Notes under the pieces: model-generated | Told to the model about the DNA's origin: nothing | What the model saw: only the letters and a program-made list of their open reading frames with translations | Databases searched by the model: none | NCBI GenBank assembly: GCA_963665095.1 | Contig: OY762069.1 | Location: 6,240,001 to 6,304,000 of the forward strand | Length of the DNA: 64,000 bases | Origin: an uncultured Desulfobacter sp. | GTDB lineage: Bacteria; Desulfobacterota; Desulfobacteria; Desulfobacterales; Desulfobacteraceae | Direction: 5' to 3' | In this document: in pieces, positions 8,453 through 46,164 of the stretch | How the letters are laid out: every line of letters begins with the position of its first letter | How positions within the stretch are numbered: the stretch's first letter is position 1 | Translations under genes and position numbers: made by a program

Positions 8453-10012
<1,560 letters not shown>

Positions 10013-10275
10013 CAAAGGAAAGAATAAATAAAAGCTTTTTTCGGCTTCACTGGCCAACTTTGAGAGATCAAACCGATGAATCAAGTAGTCGTACTCTCTT
10101 TGTTCTTTGACAATTTGTTGTAGTAAATATCAATAGCGTTGTTGATAAAGTACCGTAGGGTGCTGAGTCAACTAAATATAAAAATGGTATGGAAGATGAA
10201 AATCAACCATCCCATGCTATGTTGAAGAAAATATTGTGAAATGGCGCTTGAACAAACTAAAGTTTCGAAACAGGT

Positions 10276-10402
10276 ATGTTTTTTGAAAATTTTAGTGAAA
10301 TTCAAGGCGCAGGCTTTTCGACTGAGTGAGTCGACCTTATGGTCGTCGATCGAAGGAGATAAAGACTGCAACGCCGAATTTCACAAAATTTTCAAAAAAC
10401 AT
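10276..10402. repeat. ~127-bp ERIC-like palindromic element in the 16S-23S spacer
   Basis: arms ATGTTTTTTGAAAATTT..GTGAAATTC and GAATTTCACAAAATTTTCAAAAAACAT; internal CAAGGCGCAG...CTGCAACGCCG. Confidence 0.6.
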
Positions 10403-10437
10403 CAAAGCGTTTAAACTTATTTGTGGAATTAAATAGT

Positions 10438-13410
<2,973 letters not shown>

Positions 13411-13544
13411 CTTTTTTCCACGAATAAATTTAGACGCTTTGATGAAGGACATAGCAAGCTTGATATAGCTACAACAGATTACATATTTGGACCCAAGGTA
13501 CATGTCATGTATAACTTTCTGAAGTACCAGGTCCGACCAGTGTA

Positions 13545-13661
13545 ACCGGTGGTAATGGCGAAGAGGCCACACCCGTACCCATCTCGAACACGGAAGTTAA
13601 GCTCTTTAGCGTCGATGGTACTGCATGGGAGACTATGTGGGAGAGTAGAACGCCGCCGGTT
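13545..13661 (+). rRNA. rrf: 5S ribosomal RNA
   Basis: CCGGTGGTAATGGCG...CCCATCTCGAACACGGAAGTTAAG...GAGAGTAGAACGCCGCCGG. Confidence 0.95.
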
Positions 13662-37240: not shown

Positions 37241-37774
37241 TCCGGGAAAATAGAGCGCCAACGCCGCCCTTCTGGTCTGGGCACAGGGATTTTATTCATT
37301 GCAGGCAACCCTGGCTTAAGCGCCGGATGATAGCAGGTTCAAGTTGCGTTAATACATTATTACAGGATGCATTTGCCATAAAAAAAATTATCATTAAAAC
37401 AAGTTATTCGCCTGGGCTATAGGCTATACAGGCCAGATATCATTGTGTTCATTGGGAATCTGTGAAGAACAAAATTCAGAACGAAAAACTTTCTTTGATT
37501 GTCAAATTTACATTGAAATTTTCAACTATAAATGTTTAATCTTCAGCTGGAATCTGATCCTGAACCATAAAAAGATGTCCATTTTATGTAAGCAATATGC
37601 TGCTAGGATGGAAATATAATATTCAAAATCAAAACATGGAAAATTTTCCACTCCTTTTCCACGTTTTATAGATAATATCATGATAGCTGGAAAATTAGGC
37701 CACTTATATAGATTGATATCATGACAATTTTCCATCTATCACAACTGTTAACCTAATAAAAATAAAAGCCCGTC

Positions 37775-39052
37775 ATGAATGATATTATAGCTACAGCAGA
37801 GACAGATCTTATCCCTTTAATTAATCGAGCAGTTATGAATGTCCGTGAAGATATGAGGGATAATCCATATATTTTAGAAGCAATAAAAGTATTGCCTGTC
37901 CAGGGATATCGAAGTGCAATTGGCGCTTTCTGGAATGCTGTTGTAGACGATTTGAGAAATAAAATTATCTTCAGAAGCCTGACTCTTTTCAATAAAGAAA
38001 TTCAACCTCAACGTGAAATAAAAACATACGAAGATTTCCAGAATTATATTAACGATGATCAGTTGATTGAAGGAGCATATAAAATTGGGGTTATAGGATG
38101 GGAAGCATATAAAATCCTCAAACATTCTAAAGAAACACGGCATATTTTTTCAGGCCACCCAAGAAGTAGTGAGCCTTCATTGGTAAAAGTATTAGCTGTC
38201 ATTGATGATTGTATAAAATATGTGCTAAATGAAGAATATCCGACACAAATAATTGATATTGATGATTATATTGAGACTCTAAAGGCAGAAGCGTTCGATA
38301 GAAATACATATGCAATTGAAAATGCACTAGGTGATTTACCTGAAACTTACAAGAATGAACTTATAAATAGACTGTTCAGAATCTATATCCATCCTGACTC
38401 ATCAAGTACGTTGATATCGAACATTGAGTTTGTATCACCCCTTTTATGGAAAGTTCTGCCAAAACCGATAAAAATACAAATAGTTCGCAGGCTTGATCAA
38501 GAAATCCCAAAAGGAAATGTTGAGGTAACCAACAAGGCATTTGCTTTTATCAAAATCGTGGGTGGCATGATTTATTTATCACACAATGCCAGGCAATATA
38601 AAATTCAACCACTTGTGGATCGACTCAAAGCAAATTTGGATAATTGGGAAGTTGAAAATAAATGCGTAAGGGCTTTGAGCCAATACGCTTCAGTTATAGT
38701 TGACGAATGCATTGATGATTATGTTTCAGCCTTGACATTGACATATGTCGGTTATGTTGGGGGGAGTTCAAGATTTTCTCGGACAGATTTTTATGCAAAC
38801 GGAGCAGCTTCATATATACCGGATATGTTTCAAGTTTTTAACGATAGGATGGCAGCATCATTTATCAGGACGATTAGAGAAAATTCTCTTCTCAAAGGAA
38901 GACTTCGAAGCCCATCAAAGATAAAAAGGTTAAGAAGTCTTGGATTAATTGTGGATGAAAAAGTCTCCGATGCTTTTGAGGAGAGAGAGTTACTCTCTTT
39001 ATTGGTTGATGAATCAAAAGAATCTGATTTTTTCAATGCTATAAAAGGTTAA
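37775..39052 (+). CDS. cassette 1: hypothetical protein with a HEPN-like N-terminal domain
   Basis: 425 aa, AT-rich; EAIKVL..GYRSAIGAFWNAV helix and R-x5-H (RHIFSGH); its stop codon lies in the attC R'' box. Confidence 0.7.
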   Translation: MNDIIATAETDLIPLINRAVMNVREDMRDNPYILEAIKVLPVQGYRSAIGAFWNAVVDDLRNKIIFRSLTLFNKEIQPQREIKTYEDFQNYINDDQLIEGAYKIGVIGWEAYKILKHSKETRHIFSGHPRSSEPSLVKVLAVIDDCIKYVLNEEYPTQIIDIDDYIETLKAEAFDRNTYAIENALGDLPETYKNELINRLFRIYIHPDSSSTLISNIEFVSPLLWKVLPKPIKIQIVRRLDQEIPKGNVEVTNKAFAFIKIVGGMIYLSHNARQYKIQPLVDRLKANLDNWEVENKCVRALSQYASVIVDECIDDYVSALTLTYVGYVGGSSRFSRTDFYANGAASYIPDMFQVFNDRMAASFIRTIRENSLLKGRLRSPSKIKRLRSLGLIVDEKVSDAFEERELLSLLVDESKESDFFNAIKG

Positions 39053-39063
39053 CAATCCGCTGC
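39047..39063 (+). repeat. attC site 1, left part (interrupted by group II intron 1)
   Basis: GGTTAACAATCCGCTGC; shares TAACAATCCGCT with the intact attC at 43800. Confidence 0.8.
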
Positions 39064-39368
39064 TCGTGCCCAGATTGTTGAGTCGCATTTTATCCTGACT
39101 TAAATTTTCTAATTATTTTGAACAGATTAAATCTTTTCCATATTATTTAAGACAGCTACAGAAGTCGCTGCGCTCCTTCTCAGTAGGTTTTTAAGGCATA
39201 GGCAGAACAGCTTGAATAAAGCAGAAAGGGGAAGCAGGTAATCCCCACTTCCCCTGGCGCATTATTCAATGCTGCCTGCTTCCGGCTATCCCTTACCAGG
39301 TTGCTCCTCAGCAGAGCCCGGCTCCGTTTCACCGAAATCGTAATATTCTGCTCTATGGCTGTTTTTTC

Positions 39369-40178
39369 TTAAAAAATCTCCGATGAAGCAATGCGGACAT
39401 GCTCTGCAGATACCGTCATTGATTTTTCTGCCGCAGCAGCAATCAATGAGCCTCTGGCAAGATTATTCGCCTTTCGTAAAAGGCCGCCGGAGCCTTGATG
39501 AATCGCAGTCACCGCCTGGTCAGAAAAAAAGTTGGTGTCAACACCGCATAGTTTTAAATGATGGATCAGGTAAGTTTTCATTCCAGCCACATCCAGACCA
39601 TCCAGATGGCTTTTAGCCACAATCCTGGATGCAAACGGGATTGACGTCCGGTACTGAAGCTTATCTATCAATGTCGGCTGACCTGCAAGGATCACAGGCA
39701 GCCAGGGCATGGCGTCTTTTTCAAATTGAACCAGGGTGTGAAGTTCGGCAAAGACTTCCATGCGAAGCAGAGATGCCTCATCTATAATCAAAACGGTTTT
39801 GATCTTTTTTCCCAGGACGAATTCACGTATTTCATTTTTAATAATGGAGATCATAACAGCGCGGGACGTCGATGTCCGCTCTATGCCCAGTTCTTCAACA
39901 ATCTGCCGGTAAAGTTCCATGATGGAACCGCTTGAGGCCGTAACATAAAAGACTTTGTATTCCGAAGGGTGTAGGGATGAGGCGGCATACCTTAAGGCGG
40001 TGGACTTTCCGCTGCCCACATCCCCTGTGATAACCGCACTGCAGCCAAGTCTTAAGGAATAATCAATCCGATTTTTAACGCCCGAGACCTCCGGGGTAAC
40101 CAGGATATCATTAATTTCTATCTGCGCCGGGAAGGCCTCCCTGGATAAGCCAAAAAAGGTGCGATACATTTCACTCAT
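39369..40178 (-). CDS. ExeA/TnsC-like AAA ATPase of the transposon
   Basis: GDVGSGKST, LIIDEA, ILAGQP; ATGA overlap with the transposase. Confidence 0.88.
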   Translation of the reverse strand: MSEMYRTFFGLSREAFPAQIEINDILVTPEVSGVKNRIDYSLRLGCSAVITGDVGSGKSTALRYAASSLHPSEYKVFYVTASSGSIMELYRQIVEELGIERTSTSRAVMISIIKNEIREFVLGKKIKTVLIIDEASLLRMEVFAELHTLVQFEKDAMPWLPVILAGQPTLIDKLQYRTSIPFASRIVAKSHLDGLDVAGMKTYLIHHLKLCGVDTNFFSDQAVTAIHQGSGGLLRKANNLARGSLIAAAAEKSMTVSAEHVRIASSEIF

Positions 40179-41431
40179 AACAGTTGCCCTCCCTTGTAAT
40201 TTGAGGGTTCAGGCATAATCCGGATATCATTTTCGTTCCAGCGGTGCCGCTTGACCCGGCAGTTCACAGCAAGGTCCACCGGGGTTAACAAGCCATAAGA
40301 CTTTGCTTTATAGATAACTTCAGCCTGCAAAGGGGTGTCCTCATGGTACTTTACATCCACATGTCTGCCGATCAGCGCAACCGGGGCCTCAAACATGTTG
40401 CCGTCAAGGGTTATGGTTCGGTCCTTTGCCACCTTGCGCCGGGCGGTTTTGCGGAAGTGGTCTTTCAGATCCGGTGGGGCGGTACGGATGCACTCCATGG
40501 CCGAGGTAAATCTTTTAAACGGTGATTCGCCTGTGGAGCTGTGTTTACGCTGATGGTACTCATTATGAAGCCACTTCTCAAATGCCCCATTCAGATCATC
40601 CAGGGTCTTACCTGTAAATCTTTGCAGAAACTGAAGCCGAACCGTTCTGAACCAGCGCTCGATTTTACCTTTCCCCTGGGGCTTATATGGCCTTGCATGG
40701 ATTAAAGCGATGGACAGAGACGCTGCTACATATTTTAAATGATGGGATCTGAACGCAGGACCGTTATCTACATACAGCTTGCGGGGAAGCCCACGGCTCA
40801 AAAAAGCCTGCTCCAGCACCATAAGATAGGTCTTCAGATTCTCAGATAAATAAAAACCTGCAGCCGTAACCAGCCTGGAATGATCGTCCATAATGGCAAT
40901 CAGGTACGTTTTTCTTTGCTTATCCTGAACCAGGACTGTAGGGCCGTGCATGACGTCGCTTTGCCACATATCATTGGGGTGCGGGGCTTCAAACTTTCTT
41001 CTATCCTCTGGCCGGGCCGTGTTCATTAGCCCCCGGCCGCGTAAAAAACGGTATACACTGGATGGACTGTATGTCTGGCATGTAGTTTTTTGAAGTGAAC
41101 AGATCAATGTATCGACTGTCGCATCAGGCTGGTCTAACCGGAGTTTGATTAGTTGAGATGCAGTCTCGTCATCGAATACCCTTGATTTTCCCTGGTCTGA
41201 ACGGTCTTTGGGGTAAAGAGACTCTATTCGACCGTTATACTGCCGGACCCATCCCAGAATCGTACTTCTGGAAAGCCTGGTCCTTCCAGAATACGGGATG
41301 GACCATTTGCGGGCGCACTTCTGCTGTAAAATTCGTTCTTTTTCACCGTAATCAAAATTTGTTCCGGTCACAAATTCACAAATGACCCCAAACCTGAACA
41401 CGGCAACCTCATTTTTCTGATTTTCTGTCAT
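40175..41431 (-). CDS. DDE (rve) transposase with HTH and Mu-like C-terminal domain
   Basis: WQSD, DDHSR, LYVDNG, GKIERWFRT, YHQRKHSS. Confidence 0.92.
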   Translation of the reverse strand: MTENQKNEVAVFRFGVICEFVTGTNFDYGEKERILQQKCARKWSIPYSGRTRLSRSTILGWVRQYNGRIESLYPKDRSDQGKSRVFDDETASQLIKLRLDQPDATVDTLICSLQKTTCQTYSPSSVYRFLRGRGLMNTARPEDRRKFEAPHPNDMWQSDVMHGPTVLVQDKQRKTYLIAIMDDHSRLVTAAGFYLSENLKTYLMVLEQAFLSRGLPRKLYVDNGPAFRSHHLKYVAASLSIALIHARPYKPQGKGKIERWFRTVRLQFLQRFTGKTLDDLNGAFEKWLHNEYHQRKHSSTGESPFKRFTSAMECIRTAPPDLKDHFRKTARRKVAKDRTITLDGNMFEAPVALIGRHVDVKYHEDTPLQAEVIYKAKSYGLLTPVDLAVNCRVKRHRWNENDIRIMPEPSNYKGGQLL

Positions 41432-41534
41432 ACTTCCTCCTTAAAATTTGGTTCTAAGGGCTTGTATGACAGTATGATCCTTCGGTAAATCACAGCCTTC
41501 GGTAGGGTGGTTTAAACCTGATCCAGCCCCATGG

Positions 41535-41981
41535 TTAAATTGAACTGGTAACCGGGATTTTACCCATACCGATTAGCTTGATAAAACCAGCAACCACACC
41601 TTTGTCCCAACTGTTGGACAGGTAGGCCGCTATATTTCGTTTCAATGCAGTAAACCAAAAATGCTGTCGGTTCCAGGAGAGTTCCGGCAGATACCGGTCA
41701 GTGTATAGACGACTCATAATGCTGGTAAGGATTTGCCAGATACTGGCCTGGAACCTCTTGAAAAAACCATATGGCTTCAATTTGAATACGGTTTTGCAAT
41801 AGGGGCAGCGATATCGCTTCAAATACACCCCTTGATCAAATCCATCAAAAAAGGAGAGTACAAAGCCGTGTCCCCACAGCCTGGAGTCGTTGCAATGTGG
41901 ACATCGTGACGGTTTTGGCCATGTAAAATTTTTGCCCTGCTTGAAAATTTGCTTGATATCAGCTTTGACCTTTATTATCAT
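41535..41981 (-). CDS. DUF6431-like zinc-ribbon protein of the transposon
   Basis: CPHC...LWGHGF...RYRCPYC. Confidence 0.75.
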   Translation of the reverse strand: MIIKVKADIKQIFKQGKNFTWPKPSRCPHCNDSRLWGHGFVLSFFDGFDQGVYLKRYRCPYCKTVFKLKPYGFFKRFQASIWQILTSIMSRLYTDRYLPELSWNRQHFWFTALKRNIAAYLSNSWDKGVVAGFIKLIGMGKIPVTSSI

Positions 41982-42173
41982 TTTTATGGTTGTTTTGGGA
42001 TTTTATAAATCCCGGTCTTAAGGGCGAGGCTCTGCAAAGCTTTTCGCCCTTTTCATTTTTGTCAGAATGCTTTGATCAGAACCTGTACAGGATAATTTGA
42101 GAAAAATGGAACTTTGTCAATTTAATATGAAAAATTTGGCGGGTTTTTGTTCAGGTTATTTCGGGAATCTACA

Positions 42174-43073
42174 CACGGCTTTCGTTCAAAGCACAACCAG
42201 CACATGGCTGTCGCTGAGATACGTCAAAAGTGTTACGAGCTGAATATAAACTGGATTTTAAGCGCAGATATTACCGGTCTATTCGATAATATTGACCATG
42301 GTCTACTCCGGGAGGCGATACGAATCAGGGTAAATGATGGCGGCATCTTACGGCTGGTCGGCAAGTGGCTGAACGCCGGTGTACTCGAAGGTGACAACAT
42401 TGAATATCCAGATAAAGGAACGCCCCAGGGCGGTGTGATTTCACCAGTACTCAGTAACATCTTTCTGCATTACGTGCTGGACGACTGGTATGTCAAGACG
42501 GTTCAACCGCGTATGAAGGGCAAGTGTTTCCTGATTCGATTTGCCGATGATTTTATCATCGGGTTTCAATTGGAATCAGACGCCCAAAGACTGATGGAAG
42601 TGCTGCCAAAGCGTTTTGAGCGGTATTCCCTGTCTCTTCATCCACAAAAGACACGTCTGATACCTTTTGGAAAGCCGACGCAAAAGGGTAAACCCCAAGG
42701 GACCTTTGATTTTCTTGGGTTCACATATTACTGGGGCAGAAGCCTGAAAGGCAACTGGGTGATCAAAAAGAAGACCGCGCGTAAAAGGCGCAATCGCTTT
42801 ATGCGCATGCTATGGAGTTGGTGCAAGGCAAACAGGCACGAGACCTTACGCGAGCAGCATGAAACACTGTGCAGTAAGCTTAAAGGGTATTATCAATATT
42901 TCGGAGTACGGGGTAACTATAAGGTACTGGAAGTGGTGTACGAATACGCCTTAAAAGCCTGGAAACATTGGCTTGGCAGAAGACATCGGAACGGCAAGCT
43001 CAGCTTCAGGAAGTTTGGTAAACTTCTTGCCCGCTATCCGTTACCGTCGCCACGGATTGTACACAATATCTGA
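42174..43073 (+). pseudogene. ltrA: group II intron reverse transcriptase/maturase, N-terminally truncated, no endonuclease domain
   Basis: HGFR, ADITGLFDNIDH, GTPQGGVISP, RFADD, FDFLGF, X-domain GYYQYFG. Confidence 0.9.
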
Positions 43074-43230
43074 AATGACCTGTAGGGTAGCAAAGTTATA
43101 CGCCAATCGGGGTGTCGCCTGGTTGGTTGACGGCTCGGTAAAAAGAGCCTGAATCGAGGAACCGTATGAGGGAAATCTTCACGTACGGATTTGTGGGGAG
43201 GGCGTCGGGTAACCGATGCCTTTACCCGGA

Positions 43231-43973: not shown

Positions 43974-44006
43974 TTGACAGAATTTAAAATAAATGTACAA
44001 TTGTAC
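43974..44006 (+). promoter_or_regulatory. toxin-antitoxin cassette promoter with overlapping palindromic operator
   Basis: TTGACA-N16-TACAAT; palindrome GTACAATTGTAC over the -10 box. Confidence 0.7.
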
Positions 44007-44008
44007 TT

Positions 44009-44401
44009 ATGAGGATAATAGCAGATACAAATACATTTTTGGCAGTTACTTTATACGAACCGGAAAGAGACCGCATTATCAATCTTTCTATAGGGCATGA
44101 ACTGATCGCACCAGAAGTACTACCGTTTGAAATTGGTAATGCTTTATCTGCCATGCTGAAAAGACAAAGAATAAGCAAAGAAGAACTGCCTGATATTTGG
44201 CATGCAACTCAAAAGATACCTGTCGATCTGCGAAGTATTGATATTCCTCAAGCTCTTGAGATTGCCTCTGAATTTAATATCTATGCTTATGATGCCTATT
44301 TTCTGACATGCGCTCTTTCTCTGCACAGCCCGCTACTTACCCTTGATCGTAGAATGATCGAAGTCGCAAATAATTTAGGTATACAGACTTTGGAGGTATA
44401 A
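44009..44401 (+). CDS. vapC: cassette 3: PIN-domain (VapC-family) toxin
   Basis: IIADTN, FEIGNAL, YDAYFL, LLTLD. Confidence 0.88.
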   Translation: MRIIADTNTFLAVTLYEPERDRIINLSIGHELIAPEVLPFEIGNALSAMLKRQRISKEELPDIWHATQKIPVDLRSIDIPQALEIASEFNIYAYDAYFLTCALSLHSPLLTLDRRMIEVANNLGIQTLEV

Positions 44402-44403
44402 CA

Positions 44404-44628
44404 ATGAAAGTATTTACATACTCAGAAGCTCGACAAAAACTATCCACGGTCTTGGATATGGCACGATCTGAAGAAGTGGTGATAAAACGTCGAGGGGGAG
44501 AAATGTTTACCGTGCTATTTAAACAGGCCCCAAAATCTTCCCCATTTGATGTGCCTGGAGTAAAAACTAAAGCCTCTACAGGTGATATTCTTGATGCTAT
44601 TCGAGATTCACGCTCACGGAATATTTAA
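44404..44628 (+). CDS. cassette 3: Phd/YefM-family antitoxin
   Basis: FTYSEARQKLSTVLD...VVIKRRG; GGAGG RBS. Confidence 0.85.
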   Translation: MKVFTYSEARQKLSTVLDMARSEEVVIKRRGGEMFTVLFKQAPKSSPFDVPGVKTKASTGDILDAIRDSRSRNI

Positions 44629-44630
44629 TC

Positions 44631-44690
44631 AAATAACAAGCACACGGCATTGCACCGGACTCGCGGTGCTCGCCGGTGAATTTTACGTTA
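44631..44690 (+). repeat. attC site 3 (core site interrupted by group II intron 2)
   Basis: AAATAAC...ATT(G)CACCGG/CCGGTGAAT...GTTA; rejoining across the intron gives GTTAGAT. Confidence 0.75.
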
Positions 44691-45524
44691 TCGCGCCGAG
44701 CAAAGCTCGGCGTATCTTGCAGGGTGAAAGTCCCTGTCGGATGAAATCCAGTAATGGGTTTCAGCAAGGGTTAGCCACCCACCCGTATCGAGCCTTGGAC
44801 CCATGGCGGAGATATACCGGCTATTGTAAGTTAGGACGCTAAGTAAACTTGGCTGGAAACGAGCTGCACCCGGAATCCCGAATAAAAGTGCAGATGGACT
44901 CACCCAACTGAAAGATCAATAAAAAGGATATCGAACAAGATGGGTTAAGCGTAGGCAGAGCATCCTGTAGGCCGCAGGGGAGACCGCGTTCCCTGAAGTG
45001 CTGGTACAGCTTCGAGAGAGCAACCCGCGGACGCCGAGGGTTTTAACGGTCGCCGAAGGCAACACAGAAGCATCCGTAATCGGCGAGGATGTGAAGGTCC
45101 GCCGGAGTCAACAGGCCGTGGCATGCAGGAAGAGATACGCTGTAGAACTCGGGAAGCCCCATTGTGCTCCTGGCATGAATTATACAAAATTCAGGTGGGT
45201 CGTTGCAAAGCGGCTATATGCCATTGGGGTGTCTTATCAGGCATAGTACTCAGAGGTTGGGAAAGCCGGCCACACACATGCGTACACCATGCATGTAAGG
45301 GAAAGGACCTGACGGAAGGACGTAGCCCACAAAGGAAACTCGTGCCGGACATGTAGGGCTGGATAACATGAGCCAACCTCACTGCGGGGAATAGCAATTG
45401 GATCTTGTAACGGGTAACTGTGAAGGTCCGCGCGGAAGCGAGTCTAACCGAAGAACTGGATGCGGGAAAACCGCACGTCCGGGACTGTGCGAGGGGCGCT
45501 GGGTGACTGGCGTTCCTACCGCGA
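44691..45524 (+). ncRNA. group II intron 2, ORF-less (intron-encoded protein gene deleted)
   Basis: 5' TCGCGCCGAG, CAGGGTGAAAGTCCCTG, GCCGAG..GAAGGC domain I motifs, domain V at ~45450, domain VI ending ACCGCGA; only a PTSLRGIA ORF stub remains. Confidence 0.85.
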
Positions 45525-45597
45525 GATCTTCTAAAAACAACGTTGATGGCATAAAGTATGAGTTTAAAAAAATATGGTCTTACAATGCGGAGCAACT

Positions 45598-45903
45598 ATG
45601 GTTACTTGCTATCTAAAATATGTGATTGATCCTTATAAAATCAAAGAGTTCGAAGTTTATGCAAAAATGTGGATACCTTTGGTAAATAAATTTGGTGGAA
45701 CTCATCATGGATATTTTCTACCGCATGAAGGAGCGAATAATATTGCGGTCGCTTTATTCAGCTTCCCATCTCTTGCAGATTATGAAACCTACCGAAATAA
45801 AATGTGGAAAGATTCAGACTGCATGAAAGCATTTGAACATTCTGAAAAAACCAGATGTATCGTTAGTTATGAACGTAGTTTTATGAATCCGATTTTTGAA
45901 TAA
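45598..45903 (+). CDS. cassette 4: NIPSNAP family protein
   Basis: TCYLKYVIDP...GGTHHGYFLP...FSFPSLADYE; GGAG RBS. Confidence 0.85.
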   Translation: MVTCYLKYVIDPYKIKEFEVYAKMWIPLVNKFGGTHHGYFLPHEGANNIAVALFSFPSLADYETYRNKMWKDSDCMKAFEHSEKTRCIVSYERSFMNPIFE

Positions 45904-46015: not shown

Positions 46016-46080
46016 GTCCAACGAAACGCTGAAGTCCGATCCGGGTAATTTAGCGGCTTTTTGAAAGGCCCTGTTGGGAC
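46016..46080 (+). repeat. degenerate/truncated attC-like site
   Basis: GTCCAAC...GTTGGGAC; TAGCGGCTTTTTGAAAG matches the attC1 interior. Confidence 0.5.
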
Positions 46081-46164
46081 CTGTCAGGCGCAAGTCCCAC
46101 ATGGGTCAATCCGGGTCCCGGTTTTTTACCCCCGGGACCTCAGATAACCGTTGAATTATCATTT

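Follow-up and report, generated by a model that had tools for sequence, protein, structure and literature searches.

The class C introns known as group IIC-attC (S.ma.I2 and kin) lack an endonuclease and are concentrated at integron attC sites, where R′′ (TTGT/T) on the bottom strand is their insertion site and their orientation opposes that of the cassettes; they carry a CGC triad, as set out in the relevant parts of PMC3001079, PMC8876359 and PMC7923331. The review sections concerned, from 2015 and 2022, mention no attC specialists other than class C introns, and give GUGYG...AY ends with an AGC or CGC triad as near-universal. Class E fragments have been reported from a CALIN of Halorhodospira halochloris (H.ha.F1 and H.ha.F2; Sonbol and Siam 2021, PMC7923331), with attC-like structures upstream whose role in targeting the authors speculated upon. 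The fragments were treated as 5′-truncated, the printed H.ha.F1 begins inside domain I, and the passages that describe them leave the true 5′ end, the target motif, EBS1 and an ORF-less mobile form undefined. UHB.I2 (CL1/IIB1), described in the same paper, lies in sense orientation just after an attC and has the non-consensus ends UUGCG...GU; it belongs to another RT class and is a single case, for which that account reports no conserved target.

Two further systems are relevant. The ORF-less TeI3 introns of Thermosynechococcus elongatus share an ORF deletion and then spread via a driver RT acting in trans, but the published account places them in one genome, with endonuclease-bearing drivers and no link to integrons (Mohr et al. 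2010, PMC2882425); the relevant section of PMC4424553 calls ORF-less introns rare in bacteria. Group IIE ribozymes have a five-nucleotide domain V loop and an α′ at the tip of a stem-loop, both common to classes E and F, and EBS2 carries little apparent weight in them and is dispensable for splicing in vitro (Nagy et al. 2013, PMC3753933, in the parts concerned). A search of sections of that paper's text found neither UC...GA ends nor the UUA/AAC core. Our literature search for attC-targeting class E introns returned as relevant only PMC7923331 and the IIC-attC work. A search of openly accessible text for AAC triads or UCGCG starts returned nothing relevant; such class E ends may be recorded in the intron database.

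The intron described here differs from the IIC-attC group in lying on the top strand, at R′ and in sense direction, with a 5-6 bp EBS1 pairing and an AAC triad. Its boundaries, EBS1/IBS1 pairing, covarying EBS3 candidate, fixed position in attC and a scar shared with other ORF-less copies are observed. We consider it likely to be non-autonomous and to belong to a class E-type group II lineage whose RT lacks an endonuclease and whose homing target is the attC top strand. This locus contributes non-canonical ends in corrected form, a core that covaries with them, an ORF-less scar common to several bacterial families where the TeI3 deletion is confined to one genome, and a second lineage inserting at L′′.

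Locus and intron boundaries

The window, meaning the whole 64-kb stretch of DNA analysed, contains a cassette array at ~37.7-46.2 kb, in which attC sites separate a 425-aa ORF, a 141-aa ORF, a PIN/Phd pair and a NIPSNAP gene. No integron integrase hit was obtained in the 64 kb; an intact integrase gene (471.6 bits, above cut-off) is present elsewhere in the same genome, at C1:910169-911113. The first cassette (37747-39054) opens with GTTAACC and closes with GGTTAAC, two core sequences of perfect complementarity; its 425-aa product has no Pfam match and no integrase lies upstream of it. An rRNA operon (16S, 23S, 5S) occupies 8453-13661 of the window. The PIN toxin/Phd antitoxin cassette with its sigma70-like promoter spans 43974-44628 on the + strand, and the promoter (43974-44001) is a consensus match alone, at 11 of 12 sigma70 positions. 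Downstream of the intron lies the NIPSNAP gene (45574-45903, +; PF07978, E 3e-18), with a likely start codon at 45598 judged from homologue starts. Its cassette ends in an attC-like site, attC4 (46016-46156, +), which has the R′′ GTCCAAC and matches the other attC sites of the genome.

The identification of a group II intron on the + strand was borne out by a match to Rfam RF02005 at 44743-45118 (83.5 bits against a cut-off of 49). Domains V and VI matched RF00029 over 45451-45525 at 22.2 bits only, below the cut-off of 40. A domain I core, domain V and a domain VI with a bulged A are present in order. The element is an ORF-less class E-type intron of 836 nt (44691-45526, +; UCGCG...GCGAGA), and starts, as predicted, directly after the GTTA of the attC R′ box. 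Within it, α (44772-44776) pairs with α′ (45082-45086) in a terminal loop; of the 64 copies read, 58 have AGC/GCGA and 4 have AAC/GTGA. An optional domain I insertion of ~120 nt (44812-44931, +) is common to L003, L004 and L041. Domain V (45453-45485, +) has a five-nucleotide loop and the triad AAC (45454-45456), A opposite G, and domain VI (45488-45526, +) has its bulged A45518 9 nt from the end. Folding the entire intron to minimum energy (z -2.7) recovered domains V and VI, but gave no reliable domain I. No spliced junction was seen in the one RNA run assembled, which contained relatives only; RNA runs covered at most 7% of the words, and none contained this locus.

Homologues were collected by a DNA search, which matched 93 of 301 genomes of the order, and by two intron-internal pattern scans (at least 124 and at least 120 stretches). 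The matches listed comprise 303 loci with 255 distinct 5′ ends, 249 of which have at least 60 nt of flank; 213 of these start with TC and 33 with G. Named carriers among the matches listed are Thermodesulfobacteriota (43), Pseudomonadota (21) and a few from other phyla. In this genome the intron is single-copy, except for an orphan 3′ end of the same lineage (L002; part of domains V and VI) at C1:5207008-5207071. Head-to-tail tandem introns occur at L070, L105, L118, L199, L234 and L284.

The original prediction ended the intron at 45524 (834 nt), so that its removal rejoined a perfect GTTAGAT core. Five lines of evidence place the end at 45526 instead. First, at six tandem junctions the terminal GA directly abuts TCGCG. 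Second, in another genome (G406) the head of an orthologous toxin-antitoxin cassette bears an intron end, and counting GA as intron is the only way to bring the exon of this cassette into register with empty alleles. Third, assembled read contigs of other copies, which also include one tandem junction, diverge after 45526 and before 44686. Fourth, the first exon base (T 23, G 21, A 4; n=48) covaries with the EBS3 candidate described below. Fifth, the downstream R′′ fits the longer end in 13 and the shorter in 4 of 20 comparisons, a noisy count in which several of the attC calls are doubtful; an earlier R′′/R′ test on seven cases (4 vs 3) was too insensitive and was replaced by it. The A common to both junctions was assigned to the intron end because GA is retained at the end of five copies in which position -1 is G or C. 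Among 50 complete TC-start copies, 48 have a terminal GA, at a distance from the bulged A of 9 nt in 41 and 8 nt in 7, partly by construction since the rule sought GA at exactly those two positions.

The 7-nt tail counted from the bulged A would also end in GA, and the R′′ of attC4 itself fits the shorter boundary and its GAT better (2/3 vs 0/3 bases). These points, with the four short-end comparisons, are what an intron ending at 45524 and needing a GA(T/G) 3′ exon, with GTTAGAT restored, has in its favour. At the DNA level it is contradicted by the tandem junctions, the filled/empty pair, the contig divergence and the EBS3 covariation, and we regard it as extremely improbable. With GA at 45525-45526 assigned to the intron, the GTTAGAT core is a product of cutting 2 nt early; the empty site reads GTTA|TCT, and splicing would join GTTA|TCT rather than GTTA|GAT.

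Exon pairing and the attC target

The 5′ exon ends in the IBS1 CGTTA (44686-44690, +). Among the matches listed, CGTTA precedes 148/213 TC-start and 24/33 G-start copies, and GTTA precedes 162/213 TC-start copies; these counts include this copy and tandem junctions and ignore kinship. The TAACG at 45044-45048, put forward at the outset as EBS1, does lie in the EBS1 loop and is complementary to all five bases; the sixth position of UAACG(G) (45044-45049, +) is mismatched here. The EBS1 register is fixed by alignment of the loop with those of two introns that begin with the standard GUGCG, L054 and L055, in which CAUAUU pairs with the exon end AATATG. Among the matches listed, the loop reads UAACGU in 85 of 101 copies, and EBS1 pairs at five of five positions in 83 of 92 counted, nine rows having been dropped by a tandem-junction filter that also removed some GCTA-type flanks. 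Compensatory variants pair UAGCA with TGCTA (L242) and UAAUC with GATTA (L042), and in all four UAACGC loops the sixth flank position is G. Short palindromic inserts were seen in the EBS1 loop or domain V of L042, L004 and L007; that of L042 turns EBS1 into UAAUC, and the copy sits after GATTA, an apparent L′ box.

The δ′ base A45008 has U45043 as its δ partner (+), an A/U pair here and C/G in L047 and L051. The EBS3 candidate is the coordination-loop base A45110 (+), which pairs with T45527. Across copies, EBS3 and the first exon base are A/T in 15, C/G in 15, A/G in 2, C/T in 4 and A/A in 1 (Fisher p 6.6e-5, kinship ignored). An EBS2/IBS2 pairing was not accepted: the mean was 4.12 against 4.00, a value reached by 10 of 300 permutations. 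This weak signal appears in line with the dispensability of EBS2 for group IIE splicing in vitro.

The intron follows attC3 of the PIN/Phd cassette (44631-44690, +), which was recognised from its sequence, from the end of an orthologous cassette and from a near-identical paralogue, intact and empty, at C1:912513. Its L′′ (44649-44656) and L′ (44675-44681) pair, with an extra-helical base, 5-nt spacers and an R′ GTT at 44687-44689. The orthologous toxin-antitoxin cassette has the R′′ AGCCAAC, which lies 5 nt upstream of L′′. At that position attC3 reads CAAGCAC (44637-44643): two nucleotides are lost and CAC stands where AAC is expected. The nearest AAC is 11 nt upstream of L′′, and a spare TAAC occupies 44634-44637. 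The AAATAAC at 44631 is probably not the true R′′, given the spacing in the orthologue. The damage makes excision of this particular cassette doubtful, and the 2-nt loss may lock the toxin-antitoxin cassette in place.

Integron integrases cross over between G and TT of the core site. The insertion point is 3 nt past this crossover, and the crossover itself is not split: GTT is intact and R′ still starts GTTA. The intron belongs to the downstream cassette and lies in the 5′ leader of NIPSNAP, as had been proposed; travel with that cassette is doubtful here, the R′′ of the upstream attC being damaged. In a search for an empty NIPSNAP-cassette allele, 9 of 401 genomes matched, this one included, and the flanks were conserved in none. 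A search of a plasmid collection gave two records, neither covering 80%.

Flanks of the homologues were tabulated with a home-made arm-pairing score, called as attC at a conservative threshold of 6. An attC-like hairpin was found upstream of 103 of 199 intron flanks among the matches listed, compared with 24/1500 random genomic CGTTA, 26/995 shuffled flanks and 32/1239 non-coding CGTTA. About half of the flanks were not called, and attC3 of the window itself fails at 3.3. A first, strict detector (72/204 vs 11/1000) was too insensitive and was replaced. The homologues are thus not at unrelated sites, and their common GTTA position and attC-like hairpins agree with the top-strand insertion at the attC core that had been predicted. 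Selection and cassette transfer could also enrich attC-linked copies.

The consensus insertion is after RCGTTA and before T or G, and RCGTTAK occurs 983 times in this genome. Homing by sequence alone to RCGTTA|K, with wide insertion followed by purging of non-attC copies and spread of attC-linked ones with their cassettes, would fit this abundance, the uncalled half of the flanks, and the weak EBS2 signal, by which a second RNA determinant was not found. It is harder to reconcile with the scarcity of attC-like hairpins at non-coding CGTTA relative to occupied sites, and with a genome in which five copies share an identical 5′ RNA, four of them at separate sites and one in tandem. It also leaves the fixed position of a sister lineage, described next, to be accounted for, and we think it unlikely. 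The preferred reading is that 6-7 bp are too few to select attC, and that the RNP most likely recognises the attC stem-loop in addition.

The window contains a remnant of the sister lineage, TCGTG...CCCGGA, in the L′′ box of attC1 (39064-43230, +; RT remnant at 42147-43073). Its 5′ part has been replaced by an IS481-like element, with transposase, AAA ATPase and a 148-aa ORF (~39074-42174, - strand), that has at least 14 near-identical copies in the genome. Further copies or pieces of the lineage are at C1:935504, 937747 and 5173627, and a DNA search matched 54 of 301 genomes; a 12-base pattern search gave nearly all chance matches (1/30 real) and was set aside for it. These introns start TCGTG, end GGA, have the AAC triad and, in intact copies, the J2/3 UUA, and insert in L′′ on the top strand. 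Twenty-one copies have 20 different EBS1 pentamers, each pairing with its own flank (89 of 105 pairs, against a permuted mean of 53.7 reached by 0 of 2000 permutations). In 15 of the 21, AAC lies 10-11 nt upstream of the insertion. A constant position in attC combined with a variable target sequence is the best hint that these introns may read attC structure. One locus, L262, joins a 5′ half of the R′ lineage to a 3′ end of the L′′ lineage and is probably a chimera formed within an array.

Non-canonical core and the ORF-less form

The standard ends GUGYG...AY and the AGC/CGC triad are absent from the intron, which has UCGCG...GA and AAC. The full set TC/TTA/AAC/GGWC/GA was present in 42 of 57 complete copies among the matches listed. 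As the G-start relatives keep near-standard ends, the UC...GA/AAC set is a lineage variant. J2/3 is UUA (45234-45236, +), with γ as U45234, which would pair with the terminal A45526. Of 73 TC-start copies read, 70 have TTA at this position; the nine G-start copies read have GTA or GGA. γ is U when the last base is A and G when it is C. Similarly, an AGC triad (G opposite A) goes with G as the middle J2/3 base, and an AAC triad (A opposite G) with U. A triple helix between J2/3 and domain V is known in group II introns (PMC4424553). We infer that the changes in J2/3 and triad are compensating contacts of the catalytic triplex, and the core and end changes count as only one or two evolutionary events.

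Full-length relatives encode a 431-aa group II RT (TIGR04416, 349.9 bits, residues 34-394), which is without an endonuclease domain and matched no nuclease family. On the RT tree, made by a quick method and with long outgroup branches, the TC-start lineage forms one branch (SH-aLRT 96) with the G-start relatives adjacent. The RT of the L′′ lineage is on a separate branch, so UC...GA ends either arose twice or were lost again between. Preservation of attC function as the reason for the evolution of UC...GA ends was considered and rejected, as three TCGCG-start members of the L′′ lineage have no AAC in the 30 nt upstream. A non-class-C identity, as originally supposed, is supported by the AAC triad, the RF02005 domain I and the top-strand location at R′. 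The class E-type assignment is a provisional one made by eye, from likeness to H.ha.F1/F2, which the tree of PMC7923331 places in class E, our own RT tree containing no curated class references: in the printed sequences of PMC7923331 the intron-encoded protein matches the C-terminal half of the lineage RT and the start of H.ha.F1 matches domain I. The intron also has the five-nucleotide domain V loop and the α′ at the stem-loop tip.

The ORF is reduced, as first described, to the stub PTSLRGIA (45373-45396), which with the deletion scar that follows it, a putative hairpin (45400-45429), occupies 45373-45429 (+). Among the matches listed, 25 of 50 complete TC-start copies have an open frame of at least 400 aa, 17 have the shared scar, 6 are long copies whose frame is broken and 2 belong to other short forms. 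The scar sequence is present in these 17 complete ORF-less copies and in none of 28 ORF-bearing copies among the matches listed. Twenty scar-bearing copies, again among the matches listed, sit at 20 different flanks, 12 of them scored attC. Two copies that are 98.9% identical lie at different sites in one genome, where there is also a 2.4-kb relative whose RT frame is interrupted. Other ORF-less forms (L076, L263, L080, L127) have different deletion junctions, so ORF loss has recurred. In a tree of the 5′ RNA the scar-bearing copies are not one clade (5 changes). In L004 the first 480 columns match the resident full-length L041 at 96-100% identity in each 80-column block, and the remainder resembles L003, a mosaic pattern by which recombination explains at least that case of the scar.

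Full-length cognate RTs (63-81% identity) are present beside ORF-less copies in two genomes (G206, G276) and RT fragments in three (G216, G178, G406). The search for a cognate RT found none in G231, G210, G155, G233 and G145, and no full-length one in 8 of the 10 other genomes checked. None was found in the present genome (G000, assembly 97% complete), the best match being 35-39%. The expected dependence on an RT supplied in trans is supported by the homologues. In two sequencing runs (X10, X11), assembled pieces that match this intron exactly or nearly so had ~2.5x the depth of their flanks, a weak hint of extra copies in close strains, depth being different from copy number.

The ORF-less form might instead be a dead relic, its scar spread by recombination with resident introns and by cassette transfer, and its odd core the result of decay. 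The lack of a cognate RT in this genome, domains V and VI below the Rfam cut-off, the recombinant L004 and the scattering of scar-bearing copies on the tree would all suit such a history, as would the U-G pair in domain V and the sixth-position EBS1 mismatch of this copy. Decay does not account for ORF-bearing copies that combine an intact 431-aa RT with these very ends, this J2/3 and this triad, nor the relic for 20 of 20 differing flanks and the 98.9% identical pair at different sites, to which the raised depth in two other runs adds weakly. We consider a dead relic quite improbable. Mobilisation of the ORF-less group in trans is the probable alternative, judging from these comparisons, with the copy in this genome probably stranded.

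Proposed pathway and its meaning for the lineage

The following pathway is proposed for the lineage. Read-through from a promoter in the upstream cassette, here likely the sigma70-like one of the PIN/Phd cassette, would transcribe the intron in sense. The RT of a full-length relative would assist splicing, for which the rewired end contacts would be used: U1, the terminal GA, the γ U-A pair, and J2/3 UUA with the AAC triad. The intron would then reverse-splice into other attC cores and ride at the head of the next cassette. With GTT intact and no gene interrupted, insertion would be nearly neutral. The U at the start of the intron turns the filled 5′ junction, GTTA|T, into a target once more, which would explain the tandem copies. 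A broader proposal, which we hold only tentatively and rate as somewhat doubtful, is that two class E-type lineages, at R′ and L′′, find the attC top strand via the DNA stem-loop with an active site rewired around a J2/3 U-AAC triple, and include a persistent protein-less lineage that moves on cassettes and is re-mobilised by helper RTs.

For annotation, boundary prediction from the standard consensus misplaces introns of this lineage. The co-varying ends, J2/3 and triad supply natural mutants with which to probe the catalytic triplex, a structure that the spliceosome has in common with these introns, and the lineage is well suited to asking how a structured DNA site is located by a IIB-like ribozyme with only 6-7 target bp. 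These introns form a widespread environmental lineage that probably homes to attC cores in the sense direction, leaves the recombination sites intact and could ride cassettes between hosts.
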